From contig CBDCCK010000002.1 of assembly GCA_965214835.1 (NCBI GenBank), positions 640,001-704,000 of the forward strand: 64,000 nt of DNA, given 5' to 3'. This stretch comes from Nitrosopumilaceae archaeon (GTDB taxonomy: Archaea > Thermoproteota > Nitrososphaeria > Nitrososphaerales > Nitrosopumilaceae). Shown here one piece after another: positions 1 to 62,405 of this stretch. A program made the translations under genes and the position numbers. Positions within the stretch are counted from its first letter, which is position 1; every line of letters begins with the position of its first letter. Under the pieces are notes generated by a model. It was not told where the DNA came from and searched no databases. It was given only the letters and a program-made list of their open reading frames with translations.

Positions 1-361
1 AAAAACACCCCCGCCGTAGTCAGGGTGATGGATCAACCCCTCGTTATGCATGTGCTTCGCGCACTATTTGTTGAATGGGGATATCCGAGCTGCTGTGTTC
101 CTGTGCTTCGCGCACTAATGGATGACTGCAGCTTCTGGTCCGTCAAGACCAGGAATGAAGGAAACCGCCTGCGGTGACTCACCTCCTGCCCCACCACCCA
201 CCCAATGATCTGGGAGGATATGGCATGACCGTACTGGGACAGGCAAGCGCGACTGCATCGTGCAACCAGCGTTAGCCATAAAGTGTGCCATGATCAGCTA
301 GGCATGGATCAGAAGAAGCTAGGGACATCGTCGTTTCTACGACGGATGTTTTTAACATAGA
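1..361 (+). mobile_element. Non-autonomous IS110/IS1111-family derivative (left and right non-coding ends joined, no transposase); left tip lies outside the window
   Basis: 1-145 is near-identical to the left end 37626-37770; 180-361 resembles the right end 38880-39057; subterminal IRs aaaaacacccccgccgtag / ctacgacggatgttttt. Confidence 0.85.
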
Positions 362-482
362 TATCGCCTAATTCGCCAGAATTCCCGAAAACCGCTGAGA
401 CGCTATGTGGATCAGGCGTGCAAAAATGGCGGAAATTCAAAAAAACGTACGGATCGAGTCGGGTAGGTGGAATTAGGCGACA
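362..482. mobile_element. MITE with IS481-like ends
   Basis: IRs tatcgcctaattc ... gaattaggcgaca (TGT...ACA-type termini, left end has one change). Confidence 0.6.
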
Positions 483-493
483 GCCCCCCCCCC

Positions 494-15394: not shown

Positions 15395-15667
15395 GTTGCA
15401 CGATGCAGTCGCACTTGCCTTGTCCGGGTGCGGTCATGCCATATCCTCTCAGATCATTGAATGGGTGGTGGAGCAGGAGGTGAGTCACCGCAGGCGGTTT
15501 CTTTCCTCCCGGTCTTGATGGATCAGAAGCTGCAGTCATCCATCAGTGCGCTATGCACAGGAACACAGCAGCTCGGATTGCCCCATTCAACAGATAGTGC
15601 GCGAAGCACATGCATAGTGAGGGGTTGATCCATCACCATAACTACGGCAAGGATGTTTTTATGTGTT
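15395..15667 (-). mobile_element. Non-autonomous IS110 derivative, second copy; right end truncated by a MITE
   Basis: Reverse complement is highly similar to 1-266; begins TG|aacacataaaaacatcc. Confidence 0.85.
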
Positions 15668-20072: not shown

Positions 20073-20237
20073 TGGGCAAACTCCTCTAGTGTCTGCCAAT
20101 CTCAGACCATCCCTTCGTGTTTTCATGGTTTTGAATCATTGCGGTGGTAGCTTCCACGGTTTGTGAACCCGCATAGACTTTCATGGCTTTCAAATCCCTG
20201 TAATTCACAGGGCTTTCATCCCTGTGATCCCATGGGA

Positions 20238-21828: not shown

Positions 21829-22133
21829 CTGGGCAGATGGAAAACGACGAGCTTGGCGTACATGACGTGATAATTGGGCTGAGATCCACCATGCTCAGCT
21901 TTGAGAGCCTTCCACGGGAGGTGCAGGATGCCGTCGAGGCCGAGCTTGACAGGCTTGTAAGGATCAAACAGTAGTTGTAGTCGTCTTTTTCATAGTTTTC
22001 TTGATCGGTAAGGGGCAAGGCATTTCTTGGCTTTTCTCAAAATATTGGACGAACATAATTTCCGTATAAGACATCCATGGTAAAACGCCCGCCAGTAACA
22101 TGGCAACGTTCCTTTCGTCTTCTGATCCGTGCC

Positions 22134-22232
22134 TATACTGATGATCATTGAAAATTTCGCCTCCCTTACAAGCTGCGCTCAAGATACTTGTAGATGTCAA
22201 TCTTGATGGAGCACATCCTAAAGTATTCCGAG
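22134..22232 (-). mobile_element. IS630 right-end fragment
   Basis: Reverse complement of ~46835-46934. Confidence 0.85.
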
Positions 22233-23522: not shown

Positions 23523-26500
23523 GGAACGATCACCGCGTACGGCTCGCGCTCATGATCTTGCAAGTCCGATGCGGTGACCCAGAAGACATATGTGCTTGCT
23601 GCCGTGCCCGTCGTGTCAAGCGATACGGCTGCCGTGCCGTTGCCGTGATCCGTCACCGAGATAGAGCCTTCCGGCATGCTGTCCGGTATCATTCCTATCG
23701 TGATCGGGTCTCCTTCTGTGTCAGAGGCGCGCACTACAAGCGATAGTTGCTGTGATGTGACGGTCATCGGGCTAGATACGGCAGTGCCGTTCTGCGAGAA
23801 GGCAAGCTCAAACTCCGGGCCGTCGTTGTCCTGCGCTGCGGCGTCTCCTGTGCTCTCGCTGCCGCTTGTGGCCGTGCTCGACTCGGAGTATTGCGGACCG
23901 ACCACCACTCCGCGTGGGTCGTCCATCCTGTTGCCGGACGCAAAGACCGAGGATGTACCGGATGATATGCTTATGATGTTGTCGTCGTCCTTGTTTGCCA
24001 CGTACAGCACGCCGGCATCGTCCATGTCCATACCGTACGGCTCGTCTATCAGCGATGTGATGGTAGTGATCAGCGATCCGCTCGCCGGGTTGATCTCGTT
24101 TACGCGCCCGGCGTCATCACCGCTCTGGTACAGGCTGGATCCTGTGCCGCCCATGGCGGCGCCGCACTCCAGTCCCGCGGCCCTGTGCGTGTTGGGCGAG
24201 AACGAGCCGGTGCCGGATATCTCGCCCTGGTACGTGCCGTCAGAGGCCCTGTAGTAGAGTATGCTGCCAAGCGACCTGTCTGCGGCATACATCCGGCCGT
24301 CTGTGCAAAAGACCACGTCGTACGGGGACAACAGCGCGGTGGCGCCCGAGCTTGCCGGGTTGCGCGACGCGTCGCCAAAGTATCCCAGCGACGAGCCGGA
24401 CGACGAGAACCTCTCGATTCCCATGCTAGTGGCCACGTACAGCGTGTTGCCGTTCCACGTGAGGCCGTACGGGTATCCCGTCGTGGATGCCCACCCGGCG
24501 CTTGATCCGCTGATCGGGGCGCCTGTGGCACCGTCGTACTTGCGTATCTTGCTGTAGGTGTTATCCGATATATACAGGTGGCCGTCTGGGCCAAAGGCTA
24601 CGTCCCACGCCTTGCCTAGGCCGCCCGCCCTGTCCTCCACAAAGTCGCCGAGATACGTCCCGCTCTCTGAGAAGACCAGTACCTCGCGGTCATCGGTATC
24701 TGCGACGTATATGGAATGGCCTGATGTGGGTGATGAACCCGAGTCGCTTATGGATATGTTGTCTATCATGGCTATCTCAGACGGGCTGGAGCTGCGCGCC
24801 GTTATGCGCACCTGCATCTCGGAGACCAGATGCCCGGAGGACAGGTCGTAGGATTCGGTGTGCCACGTACTGTCGTCGTCCCCCGAGGAGGCCTGCCAGT
24901 CAAACGCAGTGGTCCATGCAGAGCCGTCATACAACTCCACCCTGAGGTACTCGCCGCCGTCAAGTGACGATGATACGAACCTGTCAAGTGTCAAGTGTCC
25001 GGTCTGCCGCGACGACAGGTCTACCGGCGACAGCGTGATGGTACAAAGCGTGTCGCAGTTGCTCGAGTATGCGACGGTGTTGCCCGTCTGGCTGCCTGGC
25101 AGCGGCGTGGTGGGTGAGCGCGTGATCCAGTCAGAGTCGCCGCCCTGGGTCCAGTTGTCCAGTCCAGACTCAAAGTTCTCCGATATCGCAGTGGGGCGCG
25201 ACGGGGGCTGGACAGTCGAGCCGCCGGATGCGGCGCTTATTGTTATGTCGTCAAGCTGCACATCCTCGCTTGAGGAGCTCTGCTGCGTGACCAGCCTGAT
25301 CTTAAAGTCGTCCGCCCCAAGGTATGACGCAAGGTCGTACGACTCTTGGTGCCACGTGTTGTCGTCGCCCCCGAGGTTGTGCGACCAGTGGTATATGGTA
25401 TTCCATGTCGAGCCGTCGTATGCCTCCACCTTGAGATACTCGTCACGGTCAAGCCCGTAGTCTATGAACCGCCAGAATCCAAGGGTGGCAGAGTCATAGT
25501 CGGTAAGATCAATGGGGGTGGTAAGCGTAAGCGTGCACATGTTGTCGCAGTTGTCAGAGTGCAGTACCTTGTTCTCACGGTCACGGCCGGGCAGCGTCGG
25601 CGCGTTATGCGACTGGGACGTGGAGATGGTCCAGTCGCCGTCGCCCGTCTCGGTCCAGTGCACGGTAAGATCAGAGGATTCAAAGTCGTCCGAGAACAGG
25701 ACGGTCTCTGCTGCTGCGGGAGGCTCCGGCGTCGCCGTACCCTCAGAGGCGATATACTCCAGCTCGAGGCTCCAGTCATTGAGGATCCCAATGTCTCCGC
25801 TTGCATAATCGCCCACCGAAAGAGTCCAGTTGCCTGCAATGGCAGAGCCCGTCATGGACCGGAGTCCTGTGTGCGAGGACGAGTAGTAGGTGTCGGATAT
25901 GTCGTGTGTGTCGCCGCCTGTCCTGCTGTGCAGCGTGGCCTGTGTTCCGTCAGGCGAGCTGAGCTCCACCCTGAGGTCCCCGATGTACGTGTGGGTTATG
26001 CTGACTGACACCGTCATGGAGCTTGAGGTTCCGTTTACCGGAACGTATATGGTGCTTGCCGTATCCTGGCTGTCCGTGTTGTCTGGTATGGTAAGGCCCG
26101 ACTCTGCCGTGGAACGGTACGTGGTGCTTGCCGGACACGAGGTACCGCTTGCGCCAGACGCCCCGGAGCACGAGCTTGGAACGTACCCCACAAACATGCG
26201 CACGTCGTTGTAATTGAAAAGAAATTGCCTAAAGTCATAAATCAGTGACTCCAGCTGGTTCCTCTGGCGGCTCGCCTCGTGCGCGGCCTCCTCGTCAACG
26301 CCGTCAGCGGAAAGGGTGGCAGACCGGATGGAAATCGGCACGGCAAGCTCCATCATCCGGCTTCCGCTTGGAGGTATTGCTACCGTGTACGTGGTGCCGG
26401 ATGTGGTGACGAGCTTCAGGTCGACTCCCTCCATGTTAACGGAGCCTACGTATATGGCAGATACCGTATATCCCGGGCCTGAAAACGTCTGAGAATAGTC

Positions 26501-28892: not shown

Positions 28893-31775
28893 TAGACCTT
28901 ATGCGTAAACGTCTACAATCCAAAAAGTAGTTCACCCCTTCTCCGAGGGTGTAAAGTCGGTAAGGATCAGATGCACGGGCCTCATGCATGCCACTGGAAA
29001 CAAGGGTGTGTGGGTCTGGCGCAAAAGGGCTGGTAAATACGTCAGTCTTGCACGCCCCAACAACATGAATCTAAACAAGTCAGGCGTACAGTGGATAGTA
29101 CGCCAAAAGCAAAAGGGAGACATGACAAACGCCCAGATAGCCGAATCCATGAACGTCTCGGTCCGCTGGGTACAGAAACTGTGGGCCCGGCACAGGTCAG
29201 GCACCATACAGGACATATCGCACCCCGCACGGATGGGAAGGCCCCAGAACGGCATGCCCGGGCGCAGGGAGCACTCGGCGGTCCTCTCGGTGCGACCCTC
29301 CGAGCACCTGGGTGCGGCATCACTGCAGGATCTCATAAGGGAAAAGACCGGGATTAATATCCCGCGACATACACTGCACGGCATGCTAAAGGACGAGGGG
29401 ATGGCCAGAGACGAGCCCAACGGGCGCAGAAAACGCAGGTGGCTGCGCTGGGAGATGGAGTATTCCAACTCCATGTGGCACACCGACTGGAAGCAGATAC
29501 ACGGCGGAATGCACGACGGCAGGTGGTTTTTGTGCTACGAGGACGACGCATCCCGGTTCGTGACCGGATACGGCATATTTGACAACGCGACTACAGAAAA
29601 CGCCCTCAAGGTGCTTGACGGGGCCATGCAGAAGCACGGCAGGCCCGCCTCCATAATGACGGACCACGGAAGCCAGTTCTATGCAAACGAAAAACAGGGC
29701 GCAAAGAGGGGGCACAGCGAGTTCGAGGAGAGCCTGGAGGCCCTAGGCATACGGCAGGTCCTTGCCGGGGTGCGCCACCCGCAGACAAACGGCAAGGTCG
29801 AGAGGCTGCACGGCGAGATACAGCGCAAGCTGCACGAGTTTGAGGATATCATGATGAGAACAAGCGATCCCATGGATCTGTTCATGAAATGGTACAACTA
29901 CGACAGGCCCCACATGTCCCTTGACCGGGAGAACCGGGAGACGCCGGCGCAGGCATATGAGCGCAAGATGCCCCCTGCGGGCGAAACGGTCATAGATGGG
30001 CAGACCAGGGAGGAATATCATGTCAGATAGGGGGGGTGAACTACTTTTCGGATCCCACACCTTATGCGTAAACGAAATTAGCGGCGATGCCCCTGGCGCA
30101 CGGGCTACAAATGAGGCAAGTCAGGGCCGGCGCACGCGCGACTGTACCTTACAACGTTGAAAATATTTGATCAAAACCACAACTATTTTCAGACGATTGA
30201 TTTAGATCCGGGATCCATTCTCGCATAAGAGTAATGGCAAAGTCCGAGACCGAGCAGATACGACTGCTGAAGAAGAGAATCGAGCAGTACGAGAAGGAGA
30301 AGGTACAGGACAGGAAGGAGAAGGCGCGGGACAAAAAGAAGATCAAGAAGTATGAGAAGAGGATCAAGAGGCACGAGAAGAAGAGCAGGCAGGACAGGAA
30401 GGAGAAGGTGCGGGACAGGACGGAGAGGATGCAGTACAGGAAGGAGATCAGAGAGTACGAGAAGAAGAGCAGGCAGGACGGCAGGAGGCAGGAGCGGGAT
30501 CAGGAGAGGATAGGGCAGCTGGAACAGCAGCTGGACGCCGAGCGCCGGATGTGGCCCGCAACCTGGGATGACGACAGGCGCTCCGCGGACAACGCCGCCC
30601 TCATGCACAGGCTCGAGGTGCTCGATGACATAATCGGTGGCGGGTCCCTGCAGCCCACCACGTCGATGAACCTCCGCCAGTTTGACTACATATATGACCG
30701 GTTTACGAAGCTTGCCAAAAAGCACACAGAAGGCCCCCTGTTCTCAGAAGACGAGGACAACTTGCCCGGAAACCGGTGCAAGCTGTCCTACCGCCACGCC
30801 CTGCTGATGTCGCTGATGCGCAAGTACGGAAACCCGACACAGGAGCAGCTTGCGGCATTCTTTGGCATAGACCAGAGCACCATATGCAGGTACCTCAAGT
30901 ATTGCGACATGATATTCACCAAGATACTGCCCACGCCGGACGCCGTATCGCGAAAGATACGAAACGCCCGCACGATCAAGGAAGTCAAGAAGATCGTCCC
31001 GGATCTGACCGTGATTGTAGACGGCACGCACATCGACATACAGCGCCCCACAGACAAGGAGCCAAGAAAGGAGGCATACTCTGGCAAGAAGAAGAGCTTT
31101 ACGCGCAACACCCAGGTGATTGCCGACAAGAAGGGACTGGCGATGTATGCAAGCAAGTCGGCGCCCGGAAGCACGCACGACCTCACCATGATAAAGAACA
31201 ACCCACCGGATCTGGGAATCCTGACTGCCAGGATGCGCAGCAACAGAAAGCACCCCGAGGACGAGAAGGTAAAGATGTTCTCTGACCTGGGATACATGGG
31301 AATCGAGGAGGTGTATCCCGGGGCCACATCCGTGCAGCCCGACAAGAAGCCAAGGAAAGGCAAGCTTACAAAGAAACAGAAAGCGCAGAACAGGAGGATA
31401 AGCAGCAAGAGGGTGACAGTAGAGCACGCCATAGGACGGATAAAGCAGTACAAGCGGATGCGTGATCCGTACGACGGGACCGCCGAGGAGTTCGACAGGG
31501 AGTTCCAGGTGACGGCCGGGCTTGCCAACTTTAGGCTGCTGTGGGACAAGCGGAACAAGAAGCTCATGCATGGGTTCTGATACCACGATACGGAGCGCAT
31601 TGCGGCGCCACACGATGCCGCACTATACTGTAGTTTTTACCAGCTGTAATGGCTCGTAGCTGCACTATATACGGACTCTGCCGCCCTCATACACGTCATG
31701 TGATGCCGTCAGCCTTGCATGTGTGGCCGGCCACCGTCGGAATATTTCGATCCGGTCGATTACGCATAAGGTCTA
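28893..31775 (+). mobile_element. IS5 (ISL2-like) element; transposase 30234-31580 with a coiled-coil N-terminus
   Basis: IR tagaccttatgcgtaa / ttacgcataaggtcta; VDGTHI, DLGYMG and RVTVEHAIG motifs. Confidence 0.9.
28912..30059 (+). mobile_element. IS481-family element (rve transposase ~29065-30030) inserted in the IS5 left IR
   Basis: WHTDWK, TDHGSQF and PQTNGKVER motifs; IR aaaagtagttcacccc; 15-bp DR ccttatgcgtaaacg. Confidence 0.92.
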
Positions 31776-36817: not shown

Positions 36818-37570
36818 TCAAATCTCCACGTTTCCTGCCCTGTACCAGCCGTGATCCAGCCTGAAGTATTTGTCTTTGACTGACTGCCACCGTTCCTCGG
36901 ATCTTTTACCCGTAGTACTTCTTATCCATACCGCATATGCAAAAAAATCCGCAAGCTGTAATATTGGATGTTTCTTTGGATCGCCGTTTATGATGCGGCC
37001 GCTTATGCTGCTCAGTTCCTTGTGGTGCCTGAACCGTAGCACTTCGCGCAGTCCGGCCATGACGCGCTCTGCCTTCTTTCTTGCCTTCTTGTTGAGCCTT
37101 TCATAGACGGCCTCTCCCGTCCCGCCGTGTTCTTCAAGAAAGTCCTGGAACCTCTCCAGCATTATCAGCATCGCATAAGACTGCGGATCAGCCGGAATCG
37201 AATATCTCTTGCAGTGGTGTTTCAAATCTATCGTGACTGACAAAAGCACGCAATCGGATTCCCTGATCATGTCAAAAACGTCGTCTGCGAGCCGCCTTCT
37301 TTGCATGTCTGACAGCCTGTCATAAGGGTAACAACTGTTCCTCAACGGATGGTAGTGAAGCTTGAATCTTTCCGGTAGCTGTATGTCTTTGAAGTATTTG
37401 TCTATTGTAAGCCCGACTGCGTCGTCCAGCGCCTCCTTTTCATTGTCACTTGCGATGATTCCTGCCAGTGTGAAGAAGCGGGAACTGCCATCTATGACCT
37501 GGTAGTTCTCATCGAGATAATCTCCCAAGTCCCCGCTTTCATCAATATACAGGCGATACAACAACAGCAT
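36818..37570 (-). CDS. DUF3800-family (RNase H-like) protein
   Basis: LYIDESGD and LQLADFFAYA motifs. Confidence 0.8.
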   Translation of the reverse strand: MLLLYRLYIDESGDLGDYLDENYQVIDGSSRFFTLAGIIASDNEKEALDDAVGLTIDKYFKDIQLPERFKLHYHPLRNSCYPYDRLSDMQRRRLADDVFDMIRESDCVLLSVTIDLKHHCKRYSIPADPQSYAMLIMLERFQDFLEEHGGTGEAVYERLNKKARKKAERVMAGLREVLRFRHHKELSSISGRIINGDPKKHPILQLADFFAYAVWIRSTTGKRSEERWQSVKDKYFRLDHGWYRAGNVEI

Positions 37571-37615
37571 GTGGCTGTGCTGGGATATAAAATCTGGGGG
37601 CGTCTTAGCCTGTTG

Positions 37616-39057
37616 AACACATGATAAAAACGCCCCCGCCGTAGCCAGGGTGATGGATCAACCCCTCGTTATGCATGTGCTTCGCGCACTACCTGTTGAA
37701 TGGGGATATCCGAGCTGCTGTGTTCCTGTGCTACGCGCACTGATGGATGAATGCAGCTTCTGATCTGTCAAACCATATCCGAAAGGAGGTGAAAGAAAAG
37801 GATTGAGAAGCATAGGAATAGACATTGGAAAGAGAAAATGCGGTGTGCGTCATCGACGCCAAGGGACACGTGCTAGAGGAGGGCTCGTATAACAACACGT
37901 ACAAGGAGGCATCAAAGCTTGCTGCACGACTGAAAAAAGAGTACAAAAAGTGCCAGGCCGCGTGCGAGTCAACGGGCAACATGTGGCTAAAGACGTTCAG
38001 GGCATTCGAGGATCAGCACATCCCCATACTGCTTGCAAACACCCTCAAGATGAAGATAGTATCAGAGACCAGCGTAAAGACTGACCCGATAGACGCAAGG
38101 AAGATAGCCGAAACGCTCAGGGCCGGAATGATACCACGATGCTACGTGGCATCAGCAGAGCTGAGGGATGTCAGGGAGCTGATGAGGTACAGGATACGGA
38201 TGGTGCAGGAGAGGACCGCAGTCATAAACGGGCTGCACAGCTTGGCTTGACAAGTACGACATAGCCATAGATGCATCCACGATGTACTCCAAGAAGGCCA
38301 TACGGAAGATCTCCGATACCAGGCTGAACATGCCAAACGATGACAGGATACTGGCAAGCTGCACCAGGAGGATTGCATCAGTTACAGAGGAGATAGGCCA
38401 GGCAGAGGAGGACATAGGAAGACAGGCAGGATCGAACGAGGATGCCAAGCTGCTGTTGAGCATGACGGGAATAGACGCCTTTGCAGCAATGCTGCTGATA
38501 GCAGAGATCGGTGACATAACCAGGTTTCCATCGCCGAACCAGCTTGTGTCCTGGGCCGGCATGTGTCCCCGGGTGTACCAGTCGGGGGACCGCGAGTACC
38601 ACGGCCGCATGAAAAAGGATGCAAACCGCAGGATCAACTGGCTGATGATCCAGATAGCCAACGTCGCCGTACAGCACGACGACAGGATGAAAGAGTTCTA
38701 CGAGAGGGTCCGCAAAAGGAACGGCAACAACCACGTCATAGCGATAACGCATGTTGCAAACAAGATGCTCAGGATAATCTGGCACATGCTGACGACAAAG
38801 ACTGCGTATTCATCGCGCAATGCTGCCCTGTACGACAAGAAGATCAAGAGGGTGACAGAACTGGCGGGAACGGCATAGGATTACCACCTTCCTCCCCCAC
38901 CCACCCACCCAATGATCCGCCCGCACCCTGGCAGGTGCGACAGGACTGGCTCGTGCGTATTGCTAGCGTTAGCTATAAAGCACAGCCCGGCCGACTAGGC
39001 ACGGATCAGAAGACGAAAGGAACGTTGCCATGTTACTGGCGGGCGTTTTACCATGGA
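37616..39057 (+). mobile_element. IS110/IS1111-family element between TG cores (37614-15 and 39058-59); DEDD recombinase 37803-38878 with two frameshifts
   Basis: IGIDIG, CEST, KTDPIDA and YQSG motifs; subterminal IR taaaaacgccc / gggcgtttta; RBS ggaggtga. Confidence 0.93.
37650..37765 (+). ncRNA. Predicted bridge RNA core (target-binding loop 37661-37705, donor-binding loop 37713-37758)
   Basis: Two internal loops with closing stems and apical gtgc/gcac hairpins; loop strands match the target and donor junction. RNA ends and transcription are not shown by the sequence. Confidence 0.85.
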
Positions 39058-39151
39058 TGCATAACCGTGCCTGAACGCGTAAAAACAGCCAGTTTTTCGT
39101 GCCTAAAATCGGGGTTGTGCAACAGGCTACCCAGTACCACCGGGCACTCCT

Positions 39152-39739
39152 ATGAAAAGATGGGACGTGGTGGAAATCCCATTGGAGAGAAATCCACAGG
39201 ATACTAGAAACGAAAGTTGGAAAATACAGGGGTCAAAATCAGAATGGGATAAACTACGATTCAAAATAACTGTTCATGAAACATTATCAAGATCAAAATG
39301 GATAGCGTTGTTAAATGACATGCACAAAAAATATGGCGTTGAGTGTATACAAGATCTAAACGATGAGAGATCAAGTCTGGGATTCATAAAGCCTCGTGAA
39401 TTCCAACAGCGTTTTGAAAAAAGAAAAAAACACGAACGTAATGTACAAACCACACTCTTTTCTCAGGAGCCATTTCTAACGATTCACAACTATGATGTAC
39501 AACCAAGAATGACCTATCGATGCTCTGGCTGCAAATCAAAAAATCCTCATGATCAGCAGATTTTGGAGTGGGGAGTTTACGAATGGATTAGAAAAAATCC
39601 CGACAAAATTGAGCAAGTATGGAAAAACCTACACATTGGCGAATCAGGGTACGATACAAGCTTCCTTGTGGGCAACATGTTTCTTCATCGCTCCTCCTTT
39701 ATGATAATCAGCATATTCCGGCACAAAATCGACATTTAG
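39152..39739 (+). CDS. Hypothetical protein, probably N-terminally truncated by the MITE; convergent with DUF488
   Basis: AT-rich 195-aa ORF; SLGFIKP, CxxC..H and FLVGNM motifs. Confidence 0.6.
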   Translation: MKRWDVVEIPLERNPQDTRNESWKIQGSKSEWDKLRFKITVHETLSRSKWIALLNDMHKKYGVECIQDLNDERSSLGFIKPREFQQRFEKRKKHERNVQTTLFSQEPFLTIHNYDVQPRMTYRCSGCKSKNPHDQQILEWGVYEWIRKNPDKIEQVWKNLHIGESGYDTSFLVGNMFLHRSSFMIISIFRHKIDI

Positions 39740-40144
39740 AAGATTCGGATTCCTAATGATCTCTTTTAACAGGTGCCTGTGACACGGTGTGCCTTCCGGT
39801 TCATAGCACAGCAAGGTTACGTGGGAATAGTTTGATTTGGCCTTCAATGATTTTATTAAATTGACACTGTTCTGATTTTCTTGCAATTCAAGTTTGAATG
39901 ATGGTATAAAATCCTCCCAATGGATTTGCTCGTTTTTGTATCTGCGTAACAGTTCTTGGCTGGGCGCAAGATCCCTCATCCACCTATCAAAATGGGTTTT
40001 TTTGACGCCTCTGGGGTAGTACCTCGTTATTAGGACTCTTAGGCCATCACCGTACTCCTTTGGTTTGTATATGCTCTTTGTCTTAATCACTTTGGATGCT
40101 TTCAATTTTATTGTAAGCCTCCAATAGTGAAAAATTTCCAGCAA
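39644..40144 (-). CDS. DUF488/YeaO-family protein
   Basis: DGLRVLITRYYPRGVKK, DLAPSQEL and TLLCYE...CHR motifs. Confidence 0.85.
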   Translation of the reverse strand: MLEIFHYWRLTIKLKASKVIKTKSIYKPKEYGDGLRVLITRYYPRGVKKTHFDRWMRDLAPSQELLRRYKNEQIHWEDFIPSFKLELQENQNSVNLIKSLKAKSNYSHVTLLCYEPEGTPCHRHLLKEIIRNPNLLNVDFVPEYADYHKGGAMKKHVAHKEACIVP

Positions 40145-40205
40145 CAGCTAAAATTCTTCATCAAGTCTAGGCGGATTTGCCTCTTTTTAGCTTTTTCGGT
40201 CACTT

Positions 40206-40630
40206 GTACGAGGCCACCTATGTTTTGACGTGTTTTGACAACCTGTCTAACATACCACGATCATGCCGATCAAATACGATGCCTGCACGACATCAGCATT
40301 ATGAAAGGCCGCCGACCCACATACCGCAAGCTTGAGGCCACAATCGTGTCAGTCACAGACAGAATAAGCACGTTAGAAAGGAGCCTAAAGGCAACGAACA
40401 GAATGCTGGAGGAGAAAGACAAGACAATCGAGGAGCAGGGCAGGCAGCTCCGGTACTACGAGAACGAGAACTCACCGCCGTCTCCCGCAAGATAAGTGGG
40501 CAGATCAAGGGAGGGGAGCTCTGGATGAGGAGGTGGTCGTGGGTTATGACGTGCATACTGACGTGGAGGGCAAGGGGCAGATCCGTAGCAGACGAGGTCA
40601 TGAAACTGGTTTAGGAACGTGACCTCATAC
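40206..40630 (+). mobile_element. IS66 internal-deletion derivative (both ends present)
   Basis: Left end like 17891 fused at ~40483 to a right end like 62445. Confidence 0.85.
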
Positions 40631-40639
40631 GATCTATGA

Positions 40640-41806
40640 ATGAATGCAAGAGAACAAAAAGCAAGACAAATCATGGAAACTCCCGGACACGCCACACAGA
40701 TCATCGGCACCGACAACTTTAGGGTCAGATCGCAGTCTGATCCCTCCAAGTTCTACACCGTTACAAGGACGGGCAACGGGTTAGTCTGCGAGTGTCCAGA
40801 CCACCGGAACAGGAGGGCAGACTGCAAGCACATCAAGGTAATACTGGAGCTTGTCCGAAAAAACGTGTTCGGACACGACGGGTTCAGGATCATGGAACGC
40901 TCCAAGCTCAAACTCTGCAAGTATTGTGATTCTGGCAGGATCGTGAGGCGGGGCAAGAGAAAGACCAAGAAGGGTGATGCCCAATTGTTCAAGTGCAACG
41001 ATTGCCAAAGGGCATTTACTGCAAACTTTGGTTTTGAGGGAAAGCAGTACGATGGCAGGATTATCACCGGAGCCCTACAGATGTACTATACGGGAATGTC
41101 GGTACGGGATATCGCGGATCATTACGAGATGATGGGAACCGACGTGTCGTTCAGGACCATATACAACTGGGTTGACGAGTATTCCCGGCTTGCGGCCAAG
41201 TACATCAATTGTATAGTTCCACGTGTTGGTAGTTGGTTCAGGGCAGACGAGGTATGGATCAAGATATCCGGAAAACAGTGCTATCTGTTTGCCTCAATGG
41301 ATGATGATACAAGATACTGGCTGGCCTCCGACCTTGCAGACAACAAGTTCCAGCACAATGCGGATTCATTGCTGGACATGACCAAGAAACAGGCCGGAAA
41401 GAATCCCCGAAACTTCATCACGGACGGCCTGCCAGCCTATGCCAAGTCCTCAAGGAAGGTATTCGGAAAGGGTACGAACCACGTGAAGCACATCCACCTA
41501 GCCGGAAAAAGAGACCGTGACAACAACAACAAGATGGAGAGGCTCAACGGCGAGATCAGGGACCGCGAGAAGGTGTTCCGTGGCCTCAAGAAGACCGACA
41601 CTGCAATCCTTGACGGCATGAGGGTCTACTACAACTATACGAAAAAGCACGGTGCACTGGACGGCCAGACCCCGGCGAAATCGGCCCTGATAAGCGTGGA
41701 CGGTACAAACAAGTGGAAGACGATAATCCAGAACGCCAGTTTGAGAAGGGATGTAAATCAGGTTTGAATCGAGAGAAGTCTCATATCACGAAGATTGCAC
41801 AGAACC
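40640..41806 (+). mobile_element. IS6-family SWIM-Zn-finger transposase (intact, 40640-41767) with right IR
   Basis: Paralog of 16696-17881; DDE motifs; aagattgcacagaacc. Confidence 0.92.
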
Positions 41807-42078
41807 GGTCATAGCATACCTTATGTGCTAGATTGACGTAGCTATGCCATGAATACTGCCCCTGTCTGGAGATCAAGGATCTGCTCTGACTGCAAGCGAG
41901 TCCGCTGCCAGCCCGGATGCAACTGCGACTGTCACTGGCAGCGCTGGCGCTAGGACTAGCCTGATACATGACCCTGATTTTGGGCACAAAAAATAGCTGT
42001 CTTGCGCGTTCAGGCACAGTTATGCAAGACTGCTGGGACTGCAAGCTTTATGAGTGCCTTGGAGTTCCCTCAATCCAT

Positions 42079-42607
42079 ATGAATTTCGTCCATGGAGTAA
42101 TAGCTGCAGTGGGACTGCTGGTGGCTGCCAACTTGGCCATGATTTCGGCTGACCTGGATGGCGGGGGCGCCGCCGATCATGCCAGGGAGCCTGCAGCACT
42201 TGACATGATGGCAGAGTCGGCGGGGATGCCGGCTCCCGTGGCCAAGGATATGCCTGGCGCAGCGGCGTCTGACGTTGTCGGAGAGCCCCCCACGTGAGGG
42301 GTACAGTCAGTTGTACAGCGAATCTGAAAGGATCCCCTATCTTGGCGTAACCTACCGCGAGCTCCGCGACATGGGATATTCTGAGCTGGAGGGCAGAATT
42401 AACGCAAATCTGACTCCATACTTTGACGGCATTGATTTTATGAGCCAGGGGGAGCTTGAGGGCCTTCGGGAGGCAGTAAAGGAGACCCGGAAACAGAAGT
42501 TTCGGTTTACCAACACGGATGACATTGAAAAGGTCAGGGTTCAGCTGGCCTTATCCAAGCTTGCACACCTGTTTAGGCTAGTGGACGACAGGGCAAAGAC
42601 AATCTAG
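42079..42607 (+). other. Two small overlapping hypothetical ORFs, the first with an N-terminal TM segment
   Basis: MNFVHGVIAAVGLLVAANL; ORF 42275-42607. Confidence 0.3.
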
Positions 42608-42729
42608 TGACACATCTAATTCATGATGCCGTTTTAGTCTGATCTTAATGTCAACAGTTTCGATGTATGAGGCCATGTACCCCTGCTGGGCATGAAAATC
42701 ACAGTTGCATGCAGATTCACGCCTAATTG

Positions 42730-43788
42730 CCAGGATTGGATGTCAGGACGGCCTAAATTTCTTGGCCTTCTGGATGCCATCATAAAAAACCTGGAAAGGC
42801 TCGGCGTTGAGTGCAAGAAGGTCGTCGTCTACAGGGGACGCATGGGGAACTTTATCCTGAGATTTCCAGTACTAGGAGCGAGGAAAAAAAGAGGCTTTGA
42901 GGAGATTCTCGACGAGTCCAAGCCGGATGCCGTAATACTGGACAACCCAAATGATCTGTGGATGGTTGCCGCCGGCAGAAAAATACCGGTGCTGGCGTAC
43001 TTTTGGGATCAGTGGATACACAGGAAAATATCAAGGGAGGACGGGGGATTCTTGACATCCTGTGTCTGGCGGTACGGGCACGCATTTGGGATCCCTGCCT
43101 GAAAAACGCAGATGCCATACTTGCCTAGACAGACTCCATAGCGGACACCATCAGGAAGCACTATCCAAAAAACAACACAGTGACGTTCCCGTATTCGAGC
43201 ATAGACACGAACAGCTGGAGGGGAGAGGGGCCCGGGGGCGCCATGGAGCTGAGGCACCCGTGCGTGGGCCTGCTACAGAACGCTGGCCGCTGATCCAAGA
43301 CAAGGGAGATGCTCATCCTGCCCAAGGTCGTCGAGGCGCCCCCACACGTAACATTCTACTGGGCCGGTGACGGGCGCTACCGCGACAGGATACTGGAGCC
43401 GCTGGCCGGATACGACAACTTTGAGTGACTGGGGCCGCTGGAGGGCCCCGACAGGATCATGGAGTACCTCTCCTCGATCTACGTCTACGGCCTAGTCAGC
43501 GGCATTGACATGTCGCCGTACTCGCTCAAGCAGGCCATGTCCATGGAGAAGCCTGCCATTGCAACGGATACCGGCGGCGTCTCAGAGACGATGCGGGACG
43601 GAACGACGGGGTTCCTGGTGGGTCTGGGGGACTACCGGGGGTGGACAGAGAAGACCACGATGCTACTGGGAGACGCAGAAAGGGCGCGGGACATGGGAAG
43701 CCAGGGACGCAGGTTCGTGCAGGACAGCTGGGACAGCAGCGTGGCCGCAGACAGGCTTGTTGCGATCCTTGGGGAAATCAAAAAGTGA
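42730..43788 (+). pseudogene. GT4 glycosyltransferase pseudogene
   Basis: AMSMEKPAIATDTGGVSE...GTTGFLV; several frameshifts. Confidence 0.75.
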
Positions 43789-44278
43789 CATAGCCGGCGG
43801 GACGGAGCCATGATGGTCCCTGCAGGTCCTCGTGGAGGCGCTACGAGGGGGACGGCTAGATCAAGCTCCACCTTTGGGCTCTGGCCAGCCAGGATGCCAG
43901 CTTTCTGAACAAGTCGTACATGTCAAATTTTTGTATGATGCCACGTACCCTTGACAGTCAGTAGACTTTGCCAAAAATGACGCAAAAACTGCCTGATTTT
44001 TTTGATCCGTACAGGTTGCGCATAAAGTCTACTGACAACGATACTGATCCATGTACTATGGGCGCGTATGATGTCACCTGCCCTTAACCAGACAGGTACG
44101 AACTGGCGCGCAACTATGATTTTCATGTATGGTACTGATTAGAAATTTTCAACAATAGAAGGCATTTCCCTGCGTAGTTCATGCCCATGTGTGTTGAGGA
44201 ACTTTTGCTTTACACAGCAAGCAAGGGGACGTGGCCCCATACAAAACATCAAATATAATACCATAAAATACGCTGATC

Positions 44279-45364
44279 GTGCAGATCATGCCAAGCCCCG
44301 TATCATTGAGGCACCGCCTTTTACGTAGAATAGAAAACAGGGCAAAGGATCTGCTGTTTGTTGATAGCCGATTGCACAACTATCAGATCAAATGTCCGGT
44401 CTGTAGCCGTTCAAGAAACGTTCAAAGAACTGACTTTTGGAGGTCTTTGAGGTACCCAAAGGCATCCACGTTTTTGATGCGGCACCGGTTCAACAGCATC
44501 ACGTCGTTCTTTCGTACCCTGCCGGATTTTCTCATAATAGGCATTGCCAAGTCGGGAACTACGTCGCTGTACGGCCTGATAAGCGCGCATCCACACGTGA
44601 TTCCCGCACAATCCAAGGAGGTGCACTATTTCACCGATTCGCGGAATTATGAGATGGGTACGCTGAGGTATCGTGCTAGGTTTCCAAGCGTGCCGTACAA
44701 GCGCTGTCTTGCCGTACGATACGGCCAAAAAATACTGTCCGGTGAGGCATCCTCCACCTATCTGTTCCATCCAATGGTGCCTAGTAGGGTCAAGGCCCTA
44801 CTTCCGGACGTTAGGCTGATCGTGATACTACGCAACCCCGTTGATCGAGCCTACTCTGAGTATCACATGCAGGTTAGAGAACGATGCGAGTCGCTGACAT
44901 TTGAGGATGCAATAAGGGCAGAAAAAGACAGGACGTCATACGAGATGGAAAGGGCAAGATCTGATCCGCGGTTTTACTGGAGCAACCTGCACCGCTACTC
45001 CTACCTTCAAAAAGGCCACTATGCAGAACAGCTGACTCACTGGTTCAGATACTACAACAAAGACCAGTTTCTCATCCTGACCCTGGAGGAGCTAAAGGTA
45101 GACCGGCGGGGAGTACTTGACAGGGTCTTTGAGTTTCTGGGACTAGAGCCGTTTGATGTGGGCAGCCTTGACCCCATGCCGAGCTATTCCTGGATAAAAC
45201 AGTTCATACACGAGCCCTCCGACGAGACTGACCGCGGGTTGCTAAATGCATACAGTTACCCCGAGATGAATCCCAAGACGCGTGCAATGCTGCTGGATTA
45301 CTTCAAGCCGCACAACGAACGGCTCTCCCGGCTCTTGCAGCGTGACTTTGACTGGAACGGCTGA
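44279..45364 (+). CDS. PAPS-dependent sulfotransferase (heparan-sulfate sulfotransferase-like)
   Basis: DFLIIGIAKSGTTSL, KEVHYF and LRNPVDRAYS motifs. Confidence 0.9.
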   Translation: MQIMPSPVSLRHRLLRRIENRAKDLLFVDSRLHNYQIKCPVCSRSRNVQRTDFWRSLRYPKASTFLMRHRFNSITSFFRTLPDFLIIGIAKSGTTSLYGLISAHPHVIPAQSKEVHYFTDSRNYEMGTLRYRARFPSVPYKRCLAVRYGQKILSGEASSTYLFHPMVPSRVKALLPDVRLIVILRNPVDRAYSEYHMQVRERCESLTFEDAIRAEKDRTSYEMERARSDPRFYWSNLHRYSYLQKGHYAEQLTHWFRYYNKDQFLILTLEELKVDRRGVLDRVFEFLGLEPFDVGSLDPMPSYSWIKQFIHEPSDETDRGLLNAYSYPEMNPKTRAMLLDYFKPHNERLSRLLQRDFDWNG

Positions 45365-45727
45365 CTTGCGACAGCCTTAGATGACCTGTGATCGGTAGCA
45401 CGGTGCCAGTACCACCATCCAGACTTGGAAACTTCCGATCGTATGAGGCAGTGTCTATCCTAGCCATTCGATCACTTGCATGCTGCCTACCGTAAGTTCT
45501 CAAATGACAAATTTTTCAGACCGAATCATATTTTGATCACCGTGTCTGACACAACGCATGACGGAGACGACATGGGAAGATCTGAAGAAGGCGTGCAAGG
45601 TGGAAAAGGATCCACATGTGATGGCCAAGATACCTGCAACAAACATGCTGTCCGAACCTCCAACGATGCATCACTGAGTTACTTCTGAACACGGGTTAAA
45701 ACGCCCGGGCCCGTAGCAGTGGTGACG

Positions 45728-45825
45728 TGGATCAACCGCTGTCTTCCCATGCGCCCCGCGCGCTGACTTCTGAATGCGGTAATTCCGAGCTGCAGTGTTC
45801 GTGCACCACGGCGTGCTGATAGATG
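45728..45825 (+). ncRNA. Second, reprogrammed bridge RNA core (truncated at the 3' side)
   Basis: Guides gtcttccca / acttctg and gtgttc / atagatg; compensatory stems accgc/gcggt and gcgc/gcgc. Confidence 0.8.
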
Positions 45826-45840
45826 GTACGAGGTCACCTA

Positions 45841-46932
45841 TACTGATGATCATTGAAAATTTCGCCTGATTACACATCTTGTAAAGGTTTATAGCTCCCC
45901 ACCATGTCACTCCCGGCATGAACAAGACGAAAATCCTCACGGATGCCATGCATGTCGAAAAGGATCTCAAGATTCACACCAGAATCATGGCGGTGCGCTC
46001 CGTGCTGCTTGGCAACACCACCGCACAGACTGCAGAGATTGCCGACGTGACACAGCGTACCGTACAGATGTGGATCGAGAGATTCGAGCTTGACGGCATC
46101 GACGGCCTCCGTGACTCCTAACAGGGACAAAAAACCAAAGGTTCCGGTCGGCAGGATAAAAAAGATCGCCACAAAGTTGCGTAGGATGGAAAAGCTCACC
46201 CCGAAGAAGCTGTGCAACCGGGTGCGCCGCAGGCTGCATGTCACATACAGCGTGGGAAGCATCAGAAGAATCCTGCGCACGATGGGATTCTCGCCAAAGA
46301 CGTCAACCACCAGGCTTGCAGATGCTGCCGACGCAAAGGCGGTAAGACGGTGGCAGGGGGCGGCAAGAACCGCGATCAAGCTTGCAAAAAGGCGCGGATT
46401 TAGGATAGCCGTACAGGACGAGTCGATATTCGTCAGTACGGGAAGGGACGGCAGAAAGTTCTGGTCGCCCGTGGGGGACAGGATCGAGGTGCAACGATCC
46501 GGCAGAAGGGAACGCGTCGCGGTATACGGAACGATTGCAGACGACGGAACCCGGCTGATGCGCACATACGACAAGTTCAACAGCGCAAACTTTGTGCATT
46601 ATCTCAAGCAGGTGCACAAAAAGCGGGGAAAGGTTCTGATTGTGATGGACAACGCAGCACAGCACAAGACCGGAAAGGTCCGCAGGTACCTGAAGAAAAA
46701 TCCAGACGTCGTCCTGCTGTACCTGCCGGTAGCCAGGCCGGAGCTGAGCGTCATAGAGGCAGTCTGGAAGGATGCCAAGTACGGGCCGGTCACGTCGGCA
46801 TTTTACGAGACGGTAGATCACCTCAAAAGGGCCGTCTCGGAATACTTTAGGACGTGTTCCATCAAGGTTGACATCTATAGGTACCTTGAGCGCAGCTTGT
46901 AAGGGAGGCGAAATTTTCAATGGTCATCAGTA
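45841..46932 (+). mobile_element. IS630-family element; transposase 45918-46902 in two frames
   Basis: TA duplication; IR tactgatga.cattgaaaatttcgcct; QDES, MDNA and PELSVIE motifs. Confidence 0.93.
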
Positions 46933-47064
46933 TAGGCGTGGATCAGAGAGACACAATTTGCCACCGCTAAAGGGCCCGGGCGTTTTAACATAGATGGGAA
47001 GACTGGCCTAGGGTGGCAAACTTTTACAGATGAATTATAAGTATGTTTTTGAAAACATAGCCTG

Positions 47065-47430
47065 TTGAATCTCCAGCGGATCTATGTCTACGTGCGTCAG
47101 GGGTGGCATGTAATATCCCCGATATTTGGATTTAGCAACTTTATCATGCTGATCTATCTTACACTGACGTTTGAGGTTCCACTTTACGTGTTTGCGCCGT
47201 TGGTGACAGCTCCGATCCTGATAGGACTGGTCTTTACAGGCAAGTTATTCAGAGACAAACAGCAGCCAGTAGACGCGAGCATGAACTACTTCCGGTCACT
47301 GGAGGTACTGCGCAGTGAATCCATCCTATGGGAACAGATCGGCAGAATCTGCAAAAACGATGGAATACCCCTGAATGAGGAGTTTGTCAAGCGCCTTGAC
47401 GTGCTGAAAAAGGCGGTAAGGAAGAAATAA
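47065..47430 (+). CDS. Small two-TM membrane protein
   Basis: Two hydrophobic segments; TATA-like ttataag upstream. Confidence 0.55.
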   Translation: MNLQRIYVYVRQGWHVISPIFGFSNFIMLIYLTLTFEVPLYVFAPLVTAPILIGLVFTGKLFRDKQQPVDASMNYFRSLEVLRSESILWEQIGRICKNDGIPLNEEFVKRLDVLKKAVRKK

Positions 47431-53873: not shown

Positions 53874-55060
53874 CAGTCTTCCCAGAAGTAACTCAGGGAG
53901 GCACCGGTGGAGGGGGTTGGGGCAGCGTCCTACAGTCCGATATACCGCGCTTGATCACGTCATTGAGGCACTGCTGGGTGATCAGGGGATCCTCGGCAAT
54001 GATCCCCGTCACGCTCCCAATCATCGCGTCTGCCATGGCCCACGCGTTGAAGACCGCAGCCGAGTACACAAAGTACAGCATCCTTGCGACCGGGCTCTTA
54101 CTGTGGATCCTGACCCTTGCGTTCTCTATCATCCTGTATCCGGTCTCGATCCCCCACCTGCGGCTGTACTCGTCCGGATCTATTCCGGGCACGTTGGTCG
54201 CAAATCCGATGAGCCGCTCGTGTGCCGGCAGCTTTTCCACGTTTGTCTTGCCCGACCGCTTCTTCCTTCTCTTTGTGATGACCATCGTGTACCGCGCTGA
54301 CTTGGAGGTGCCGGATACGACCGACTCGACCTCCACTCTTCTTTTTATGCCATCATGTTCGCTGAGGGTCGCAACGACGGCATCCGTGTTCTTGCACGGT
54401 ATGATGTACCCGACTCCCGCCGCATCCAGCTCGGAGATGACTGCGGCCGAGAAGAACTCGCGGCCCAGCATCACGACCCCGGGCTCGGCCCCCGCGCGGC
54501 GTGCAGAATCGATGGTCCTACGCACGAAATCGGCCGTATCCTCAAGCGCCGGCATGTGCAGTACGCCCAGTACAAGGCGGCAGTGCTTTACCAGGCACTG
54601 TATGGTCATATAGCGCTCAAAGACTGCCGTCCCGCTCTTCTTCCTAGAGCGGACAAGCTCCCCGCCGTGCTTTTTGTCGTAACGCGGTATCAGGTGCATG
54701 TCTATTGCCGCATCCAGCCTCTGGCCCCCGGTGATCAGCCCCGTCTCCCTCAGCTGTTCAAGCTGCCGGCCAACGGTTCCTGCAAGGCAGTCCAGGATCT
54801 AGTCGGGCTCGGACCTTATTGCGACGCTACGGATTCACTCGTCGGTGGGATTGCGGAGCAGTCCCGGGGCCGTCGGCACCTCGCGTGCAGACATTATACA
54901 GCCGGCCACCTGCCCGTTGGAATGGACGCGCGCGTCCGGAACCTGAAAGTCGCCTGCAGTATAGATGGCGTTGTGCCTGTCCGAGGCCCCGACGCACGGG
55001 GCCATGCCTTCGCCGACGGTCTCCAGGGGGTTGTCCAAAAAATTTCCGCAAAATGACCGC
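53874..55060 (-). mobile_element. ISH3-family transposase pseudogene with right end
   Basis: AIDMHLIPRY, REFFS and YSRRWGIETGYR motifs; terminus ctgagttacttctgggaagactg. Confidence 0.8.
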
Positions 55061-56196: not shown

Positions 56197-56677
56197 GATA
56201 TTTGTGTTGCCTTTTGTGCAGTCTTCCCAGAAGTACCACGTCAAATTATCCCAAGCTCGAAACAATTCAAATGAGGCTGCCTGTAGATCCGCTTGCCACC
56301 TCCTGCACCGCCGCGAGTCGGTTGCTTCTGGGAGGACTAGGCGGCACTGCTGGTTGGGCCTTTATGACCATGCCACCAGCGCCGTATCCCCGGAGGCGGG
56401 CAAACTCCGGGTACAAAGCCACCTAGCCTTAAACAGCTAGGGACAAGCTTTTGTGCGGTTGTGATTCTCATGCCTGTCCAGCAAGGGGGACATGATCTTG
56501 TATACCTACAGATCTATACATCGCCTCCACCGCCACGGGTCGGGTACATTTGGGAAGACAAAAGACTAGTATGTATTCAATAGGAGAAGGACTTTTTAGA
56601 AAATGATAAAAAGAAGATATTTAAAGAAATGAAAAAAGCGGAACAAAATTAAAAAAGTAGATTTTGGGAAAAAAATA

Positions 56678-62317: not shown

Positions 62318-62405
62318 GGTGCGTTTACCTAGCACGGTAAGGTGTCGCCCTGAAAGGCGATTGTTCTCGGAAGGAACATCGTGGGTTCGACTCCCACACT
62401 CACCG
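62318..62405 (+). tRNA. tRNA-Ser-like gene with a 6-nt anticodon loop (possibly a pseudogene)
   Basis: Cloverleaf: D stem acct/aggt, AC stem tcgcc/ggcga, long variable arm, T arm gtggg-ttcgact-cccac, G discriminator, T-rich tail. Confidence 0.8.

Follow-up and report, generated by a model that had tools for sequence, protein, structure and literature searches.

Predicted guide RNA genes of IS1111-type elements in a Nitrosopumilaceae archaeon match the terminal inverted repeats of co-resident transposons

We analysed a stretch of 64,000 nucleotides (nt) from contig CBDCCK010000002.1 of a Nitrosopumilaceae archaeon, referred to below as the window, together with the rest of its genome, whose archaeal nature is reflected in the ribosomal RNA models (the archaeal small and large subunit models came out on top). 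Window positions are given as plain numbers, and genome coordinates as C1: or C2:. The window carries a complete IS110-family element, A, and the broken remnant of a second one, B. Very probably, these elements represent an IS1111-type RNA-guided lineage with at least five guide sets, and each set fits another of the resident DDE transposon families at its terminal inverted repeat (TIR).

Insertion sites in the ends of other transposons

Left ends were collected genome-wide with a hidden Markov model (HMM), which returned 31 copies, and with blastn, which added one remnant of 26 nt (32 in total). An HMM of the right end gave 29 copies genome-wide at E <= 1e-3, two weaker rows being excluded. 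When a left and a right end on the same strand and at most 4 kb apart were taken as a pair, 18 left ends found a partner; 14 of the pairs measured 1.3–1.55 kb and the other four 367–373 bp, which is too short for a transposase gene. Flanks were classed, and guide mismatches counted, by eye against the consensuses of four repeat classes, T1 (IS5 family), T2 and T3 (both ISH3-like) and T4 (IS5-like). As many as 29 of the 32 left flanks and 23 of the 29 right flanks fell inside a TIR of T1 to T4, with an insertion point that was always 5–11 nt from the repeat tip.

Left flanks (n = 32): T1 15, T2 6, T3 5, T4 3, other 3
Right flanks (n = 29): T1 11, T2 1, T3 6, T4 5, other 6

An earlier note on this DNA had read the elements as programmed against the inverted repeats of several families of mobile elements in one genome, and had proposed to classify the empty sites of all copies. 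The census bears this out: four TIR families are occupied, and the insertions do not fall mostly in DNA outside insertion sequences (IS).

These sites are repeat tips because the context of each motif is unique on one side and conserved within the family on the other. In inverted orientation, T1 motifs form eight pairs at 50–99 bp, corresponding to transposable elements of the miniature inverted-repeat type (MITEs), as well as elements of 1.2–1.5 kb, and T2 motifs form seven pairs at 1368 bp (an IS). The T3 motifs give 33 pairs at 100–149 bp (MITEs) plus a 1284-bp element, and the T4 motifs 52 pairs at 100–149 bp (MITEs) plus longer elements. Long members of all four classes encode DDE transposases. 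The T1 owner belongs to the IS5 family (166.7 bits, cut-off 140), and the T4 owners, whose ends read GGGGTTGTCGCCTAATTC, encode DDE_Tnp_1 proteins with IS5 models as best NCBIfam hits, below cut-off. For the T2 and T3 owners the best NCBIfam hit is NF033541 (ISH3): a fragment in the window scores 103.2 bits, the 1284-bp T3 element 60.7 bits and the T2 IS 111 bits, all below the cut-off of 225 bits; the ISH3 label that the earlier note gave to the terminus at 53874 therefore stands as a best hit at a score under that cut-off. PF01609 (DDE_Tnp_1) was found in the window fragment and in the T2 IS, and nothing was found in the 218-aa open reading frame (ORF) of the 1284-bp T3 element.

Both junctions show a TG. 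If the two flanks are joined via just one TG, the result is identical to uninterrupted sites in the genome, without target duplication. As the earlier note had stated, the flanks of B joined in this way give the exact reverse complement of 53874-53896, with 0 mismatches over 19 nt. This 19-mer has 24 exact copies in the genome and, when up to 3 mismatches are allowed, five matches in the window (at 53874, 56219, 56321, 1037 and 58368) compared with 0.02 expected from 100 shuffles. Among the related ends named in the note, those at 56219 and 58370 (here 58368) are thus recovered, and the related end at 935 has 4 mismatches (by eye). Similarly, the T1 17-mer has three matches in the window compared with 0.07 expected. 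The sites contacted by the guides (13–14 nt) occur in 4–57 genomic copies compared with 0.02–0.1 expected, and perfect free sites number 4 for guide set A1, 9 for A2b, 23 for A2a and 57 for B, so that the sites are indeed multi-copy, as had been supposed. Free T3 sites in the window include:

53874..53896, + strand: uninterrupted T3 terminus of an ISH3-like fragment, a free and perfect B target (transposase remnant at 53893-54699, minus strand)
56219..56339, + strand: T3-type MITE, both TIRs free

Guide loops, RNA fold and family assignment

When the left ends were aligned, two short segments were seen to vary together with the flanks. In all five guide sets the 5' guide is complementary to the right flank and the 3' guide is identical to the left flank, core included in both cases (the slash marks the junction in the target):

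A1: target TAGCCTGTTG/CATAAC (IS5 family); 5' segment GTTATGCA; 3' segment CCTGTTG
A2b: target with TAGTTTGTTG, a variant of A1's repeat; 3' segment TTTGTTG
A2a: target CAGTAGTTG/AAAATG (ISH3-like, the 1368-bp IS); 5' segment CATTTTCA; 3' segment GTAGTTG
A3: target GGGGTTG/TCGCCTAA (IS5-like, about 70 MITEs); 5' segment TACGCGACA; 3' segment GAGGTTG
B: target ACTTCTG/GGAAGAC (ISH3-like); 5' segment GTCTTCCCA; 3' segment ACTTCTG

We had first assumed the IS621-type order, with the guide for the left flank in 5' position; it was rejected, as the observed order is the reverse, which is that of IS1111. Over 7 nt, the 3' guide of 26 left ends showed no mismatch with their own left flank in 13 cases, one in five and two in four (the four left ends with three or more are taken up below). 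For the 5' guide, compared over 8 nt with the right flank of the same element in the 18 pairs, there were ten cases without mismatch, one with one, one with two and six with three or more.

Sequence variation in the left end is concentrated in the guides. In the A clade, 13 columns reach an entropy of 1 bit or more, and eight of them coincide with non-core guide positions, which number 13 (Fisher 2.7e-7). Between A1 and A2a there are 12 differences in 150 positions, nine of them in guides, and close relatives in general have left ends that are 86–94% identical and differ mainly at guide positions, which argues for retargeting within one lineage. The earlier idea of one lineage retargeted to several IS and MITE ends holds to this extent, the guides matching the TIR flanks and the relatives differing at the guides; it does not extend to B, whose protein is 52–55% identical to that of A over the matched parts and which is a distinct sister lineage and not of the same close lineage as A.

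A second loop, the donor loop, contains TGTGTTC, complementary to the start of the left end, and its other guide is identical to the tip of the right end and covaries with it (ATGGATG with ...CCATGGATG, ATAGATG with ...ACATAGATG). The guide segments occupy internal loops within a conserved fold, which consists of a closing stem and two stem/loop/hairpin modules. This five-helix structure is 94.1% paired, compared with 28–58% when the partners are slid, and shows three compensatory pairs. A pairing of the two donor guides with each other proposed by RNAalifold (columns 110-114 with 135-139) and a hairpin at 92-100 are probably spurious and were excluded from the structure.

The transposases carry both Pfam domains, PF01548 (N-terminal RuvC-like DEDD; E 1.9e-23 for A in the window, 103.9 bits for the intact copy and 60.8 bits for B, cut-off 29) and PF02371 (C-terminal Tnp domain; 85.8–95.1 bits, cut-off 21.3); in A itself the two domains are split by a frameshift. 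The intact A2a protein scored 234 bits with NF033542, "IS110 family RNA-guided transposase" (cut-off 140), and phmmer retrieved the transposases of ISCro4 (E 4e-9) and IS621 (E 9.2e-9), both of solved structure. The GID, E, D..D and SG motifs could be aligned with ISCro4, and from this alignment alone the catalytic serine of the A2a-type protein can be assigned provisionally.

IS1111-type elements are defined, in passages of PMC11208160 and PMC11187229, by sub-terminal inverted repeats of about 7–17 bp, and the IS1111 seekRNA is described in the latter as carrying the complement of the top strand 5' of that of the bottom strand. The B left end has the sub-terminal repeat GTTAAAACGCCCGGGCCC, and the right end contains the reverse complement of this sequence without any change (18 bp, perfect); in A, TAAAAACGCCCCCGCC faces GGCGGGCGTTTTA with one or two indels (by eye). 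The long non-coding region of IS1111 elements is expected downstream of the transposase gene, but here the guides are in an upstream region (about 190 nt in A, about 135–150 nt in B); a second non-coding region, of about 135–180 nt, does follow the gene, and inspection by eye gave no target matches in it. From the repeats, the TG core and the order of the guides, A and B can be classed as IS110-family elements of the IS1111 type. Other IS110-family transposase genes are present at C2:312392, 1548438, 1472973, 963662, 2028248 and 2873136, about 29–32% identical to the A-clade protein, and at C2:1650782 and C1:7830, which belong to the family by their PF01548 hit. Since none of these loci matches the A or B left-end model, they are separate lineages.

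Elements A and B and other features of the window

Element A is inserted in an 80-bp T1 MITE with the ends TAGCCTGTTGCATAACC and GGTTGTGCAACAGGCTA; the left end of the MITE reads TAGCCTGTTG/CATAACC, with A at the slash, and the right end finishes at 39129. This agrees with the earlier description of its empty site as the left repeat of a MITE.

37606..37615, + strand: outer 10 nt of the left TIR of the T1 host MITE, TAGCCTGTTG
37616..39059, + strand: element A, 1444 bp, subfamily A1, complete IS110-family element
37667-37675 and 37691-37698, + strand: 5' and 3' target guides of A
37719-37726 and 37743-37749, + strand: donor guides of A
37825-38250 and 38282-38878, + strand: transposase gene in two parts, with a 1-nt insertion common to all A1 copies
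39060..39129, + strand: remainder of the T1 host MITE, from CATAACC to the right TIR GGTTGTGCAACAGGCTA

The 1-nt insertion (38240-38251 in the window) is shared by all A1 copies (C2:2128809, 1942410, 2580232 and 1519219 among them) and by the A2a copy C2:1302397; some ten near-identical copies have it. It reads CAGCTTGGCTTGAC where the sole intact copy has CAGCCT-GCTTGAC, and an in-frame TGA results. With a +1 shift at GCT TGA C, the protein would again read ...LHSLADKYD..., to be compared with LHSLLDKYD in the intact protein. From these sequences, either the frameshifted copies would move in trans, or the shift would be read through by programmed frameshifting.

Two non-coding parts of A deserve mention. 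At 37624-37631, within the sub-terminal repeat of the left end, a TATA-box-like run, ATAAAAAC, is found about 25 nt upstream of the closing stem of the RNA (TGGATCA at 37654); it suggests that the element may have an archaeal promoter of its own inside the left end, whereas for IS621 and ISEc11 a promoter built at the junction has been reported. The downstream non-coding region (38880-39059, about 180 nt) is retained in the derivatives of about 370 bp (150-363 in the window) and is conserved between them and A (ccaccacccacccaatgatc..., ctaggcayggatcag...); no target matches were seen by eye in this region.

Other copies and ends in the window, one of them next to a T4 MITE, are:

1..363, + strand: non-autonomous derivative of about 373 bp that begins 10 nt before the window, with left and right ends and without transposase gene
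364..487, + strand: T4 MITE with a left TIR short of its 7 opening nt (GGGGTTG) and an intact right TIR
15522..15667, minus strand: A-clade left end at a T2-type repeat end, CAGTAGTTG; no right end found
22072..22140, minus strand: orphan right end of A type; an IS630-family fragment precedes it, inserted at the CTAG that is also used in B; the flank is not a recognised repeat end

The derivative has a T1-type left flank (outside the window), a T4-type right flank and TA instead of TG as core; its flanks are thus chimeric, and its donor guide also disagrees with its right end. It lies inside a T4 TIR, because the adjoining MITE is the one that has no first 7 TIR nt. It had been described as a copy at 1-361 abutting an IS481-like MITE. 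It does abut a MITE and ends at 363, but an IS481-type owner of the MITE at 364-487 was ruled out, the elements with GGGGTTGTCGCCTAATTC ends encoding DDE_Tnp_1 proteins whose best hits are IS5 models. Its right end and the flank that follows (C2:640295-640362, or 295-362 in the window) are identical to C2:635636-635703, 4.66 kb away, an indication that a segment has been duplicated just upstream of the window. In the left end at 15522..15667 the 3' guide, TCTGTTG, is of T1 type and disagrees with the T2-type flank.

Element B, which the earlier note took for a bridge element at 45674..47005, turned out to be a dead remnant without IS110 transposase, in which a left end, 12 nt, an IS630-family element and a right end follow one another:

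45674..45687, + strand: left half of the B target, inner part of an ISH3-like TIR (T3) with the TG core, ctgagttacttcTG
45688..45825, + strand: B left end, 138 nt, with the guide RNA gene; starts AACACGGG
45741-45749, + strand: 5' target guide GTCTTCCCA, reverse complement of the right flank TGGGAAGAC
45766-45772, + strand: 3' target guide ACTTCTG, identical to the left flank
45826..45837, no strand: 12 nt, GTACGAGGTCAC, belonging neither to B nor to the IS630-family element; match the tip of another repeat family, reversed
45838..46935, + strand: IS630-family element, 1098 bp, TIRs CTATACTGATGA...TCATCAGTATAG, replacing the interior of B
46936..46996, + strand: B right end, 61 nt, closing with the sub-terminal repeat GGGCCCGGGCGTTTTAAC, ATAGA and the TG core; ends AACATAGATG
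46997..47005, + strand: right half of the B target, outermost 9 nt of the T3 TIR, GGAAGACTG (ggaagactg)

The full-length relative of B is found at C2:2665851-2667293 (1443 bp). The left end of the window copy is 99.3% identical to it over 148 nt, flank counted in, and the match to its right end spans about 46933-46996. The donor loop holds ATAGATG, as does the B right end. The left flank is formed by a solo T3 end of about 37 nt, which is repeated elsewhere in the genome over the terminal ~35 nt only. The IS630-family element has a split transposase gene (second ORF at 46090-46902) with the Pfam domains DDE_3 and HTH_33 (NF033545, 141.7 bits, cut-off 100) and more than 15 near-full copies in the genome. 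The 12 nt at 45826..45837 probably mark a rearrangement. At 45818-45837 the donor-loop segment GATAGATG is directly followed by GTACGAGGTCAC, the reversed tip of the other repeat family (...GGTGACCTCGTAC), and this join resembles a junction between right end and target; more speculatively, the donor-guide segment, a mimic of the right-end tip, may have served as a pseudo-end in the rearrangement.

IS630-family ends adjoin the right ends of three IS110-type elements at one CTAG, ...CAGTATAG/GCRYGGAT... (46930-46940 and 22133-22140 in the window, C2:1849600-1849665). This could be a preferred IS630 site in the right ends or a single ancestral event that was later copied. At 47058-47074, 50 nt 3' of B, TAGCCTGTTGAATCTCC consists of a T1-type left half-site followed by unrelated sequence.

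Sequencing-run contigs X1, X2, X7 and X8 were compared with 36900-47400. None has a joint that skips A or B exactly, and contigs end at repeats; some reach about 20 nt across the left junction of A or of B. They say nothing for or against mobility.

Elsewhere in the window, two adjoining arrays of 32–33-nt direct repeats, AT-rich and non-coding, are found at 20237-20547; the first comprises four copies of ATTTTCACTACTTTTCAAATCCATACTTTCACT, three identical and the fourth 65% alike, and is followed by the 32-nt unit. An ORF of 1779 aa occupies 23519-28858 on the minus strand, and a 21-nt periodic coding repeat rich in Lys, Glu and Arg is located at 30271-30522 within the ORF 30234-31580. In a search of the window with Rfam at gathering thresholds, a tRNA alone was matched (62318-62405, 88 nt, 39.4 bits) and a bridge-RNA family was not found. 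The tRNA may contain an intron, as its 88 nt exceed the 71 positions of the model.

Alternative readings, mechanism and known systems

Several observations weigh against an RNA-guided lineage aimed at repeat ends. A recognised repeat end is lacking at three of the 32 left flanks and six of the 29 right flanks, and five of the 18 paired elements have discordant flanks (T1/T4 twice, T2/T4, T2/other and T3/other), which would most simply be explained by recombination between copies after insertion. In four of the 26 left ends, including the one at 15522-15667, the 3' guide has three or more mismatches with the flank. Most transposase genes are broken, the A clade having one intact gene (C2:513383-514516) and B none, so that present-day activity is unproven. 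As for the RNA, the three compensatory pairs are all contributed by B sequences and hence represent few independent events, and the A RNA region taken alone has a minimum-free-energy z-score of -1.56, which is not significant. Lastly, the support for RNA guidance comes from sequence, namely the covariation of guides and flanks and the conserved fold.

The earlier note also supposed that the insertions immobilise competitors. Guides would then track the TIRs of rivals because splitting disables their ends, and in the resulting arms race free ends would escape by mutations at guide positions. All guide sets do strike 5–11 nt from the tip, within the part that a DDE transposase has to bind and cut; A1 has only four perfect free sites for five occupied perfect ones, and most of the 75 free T1-type ends are mismatched at guide positions. 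The comparison of free with occupied ends proposed in the note thus gives the expected mismatches, but these (CACAAC for CATAAC, CT or TT for CC) are the ordinary variants of subfamilies and of left and right ends, and we set aside their reading as escape from A1. Moreover, 57 perfect free sites remain for B, which has five left ends, and 23 for A2a, meaning that saturation is not general and concerns at most A1. Conservation and copy number suffice to explain the choice of repeat tips, and we consider a function against competitors unlikely. The broader proposal is equally doubtful: a selected hyperparasite, or a brake tolerated by the host, in which the lineage and its derivatives of about 370 bp track and split the TIRs of every abundant DDE family, guides and repeat ends co-evolve, and most copies are mobile through a recoded (+1 at GCT TGA C) or trans-acting transposase.

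It could also be argued that shared flanks overstate targeting, many copies not having inserted independently: a MITE or IS with an insertion already in it would have been multiplied as a composite, through its own DDE transposase or a segmental duplication. Three A1 copies do share the right flank of one MITE subfamily, CATAACCGTGCCTGAACGCGTAAAA, and the right end and flank at C2:635636-635703 are identical to those at C2:640295-640362. However, A1 is found in no fewer than four host contexts, namely at either end of the 80-bp MITE and at either end of the 1.4-kb IS5-family element, B in at least three T3 host families, and the sequence outside each host differs. Guides and flanks covary, furthermore, across five classes and in two other genomes. 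We thus regard such hitch-hiking as improbable. That the transposase alone reads a shared motif of the GTTG/CTG type, the left-end matches being remnants of the target, is hardly tenable: the A-clade targets do share ..GTTG just before the cut, but B uses CTTCTG, the matching segments are separate, one of them is reverse-complemented, they lie in internal loops of a conserved fold and they change with the flanks, the remainder of the left end being 86–100% identical, and the family is experimentally RNA-guided (passages of PMC11208160 and PMC11187229).

We therefore retain the reading of an RNA-guided lineage with several guide sets. According to this model, the upstream end would encode a bridge RNA or seekRNA with two internal-loop modules, the guides of the target loop matching both halves of the target and those of the donor loop the element's own two ends; by analogy with ISEc11 and IS621, this RNA would be made and would guide recombination. 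Repeat ends would be chosen as the most conserved, multi-copy and non-essential sequences of the genome, hence as safe landing sites, and the splitting of the host repeat would be a side effect.

Relatives support a wider occurrence. Homologues of the intact A2a protein were found at E <= 1e-20 in nine of 40 other related genomes. Copies in two of these, G010 (about 60% identity) and G004 (49%), show the same arrangement of left and right ends, and here, too, the guides match the flanks of the copy that carries them, although these flanks have other sequences. The site in G010 is the inner edge of the TIR of a MITE of ~75 bp (two occupied copies, one free), so that landing in the ends of small transposons is not confined to the present genome, with this one further genome as the case in point. 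A pattern search for related loci in other genomes gave 80 matches, 0 of which were confirmed.

These sister elements, which differ almost only in their guide loops, illustrate natural reprogramming of bridge RNA or seekRNA guides, and provide a ready natural series of guides and targets for the design rules of IS1111-type systems (TG core, guides of 7 nt and 8–9 nt, upstream RNA gene). They also make transposon conflict testable, since it can be asked whether RNA-guided insertion in a TIR disables the host element.

The mechanism is the known one and no new kind of system is involved; the targeting of TIRs by IS110/IS1111-type elements is itself already known. Partridge and Hall (2003) reportedly described IS4321 and IS5075 inserted in the terminal repeats of the Tn21 family, and Muller and co-workers (2001) are said to have found that the inverted repeats of IS1384 serve IS1383 as integration sites in Pseudomonas putida H. 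Like IS4321/IS5075, the elements described here have a DEDD transposase and sub-terminal inverted repeats, and insert at a fixed position and orientation in the TIR of another transposon without duplication; unlike these bacterial elements, which have one target family and a downstream non-coding region, they are archaeal, address four families and carry their guides upstream. They resemble IS1383, which we know by title only, as IS110-family elements that target the inverted repeat of another IS, but have several targets in an archaeon instead of a single IS/IS pair in a bacterium. What is new is the multiplicity in one archaeal genome and the non-autonomous, guide-carrying derivatives of about 370 bp; these, together with the archaeal setting and the IS1111-type layout with an upstream RNA, make the lineage an instructive case of the family. 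In the parts of the full-text literature searched and of a preprint on archaeal IS110 recombinases, there is no description of sister subfamilies that target several repeat families in one genome; the searched full texts likewise mention no archaeal targeting of repeat ends, and the supplementary tables of PMC11187229 and PMC11208160, which lie outside that search, may list archaeal members whose targets are transposon ends.

That IS110-family movement is RNA-guided has been established experimentally (PMC11208160, PMC11187229, passages on the mechanism). In the sections of PMC11187229 concerned, natural reprogramming among relatives is reported, a target logo of IS4321/IS5075 is mentioned, and ISEc21 is described as inserting inside IS3-family transposase genes; our elements are similar to ISEc21 (IS110 family) in that they target other IS, though not in the site. 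They share with the seekRNAs of ISEc11, ISPa11 and ISKpn4 (IS1111 family; same sections) the 5' position of the complement of the top strand. They depart from the usual IS1111 type, in which the non-coding region is downstream, by their upstream region, ISMtsp17 being an exception listed in PMC11187229 and compared here by layout only. As in IS621 (passages of PMC11208160 and PMC11208158), the left end would give an RNA with a target-binding and a donor-binding loop, and the targets are multi-copy repeats (REP elements for IS621). Unlike in IS621, where the left target guide (LTG, nt 50-58, bottom strand) is 5' of the right target guide (RTG, nt 77-80, top strand; PMC11208158), the order of the guides is reversed, the core is TG instead of CT and there are long sub-terminal repeats (perfect over 18 bp in B). 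For ISPpu9/ssr9, too, additional copies of the RNA part without transposase gene are described in the portion of PMC12288879 concerned; unlike the solo ssr9 copies, the derivatives of about 370 bp keep both ends, as MITEs do, and four of them are complete. Altogether, these comparisons extend the targeting of repeat ends from a few bacterial IS to archaea, with several targets per genome.

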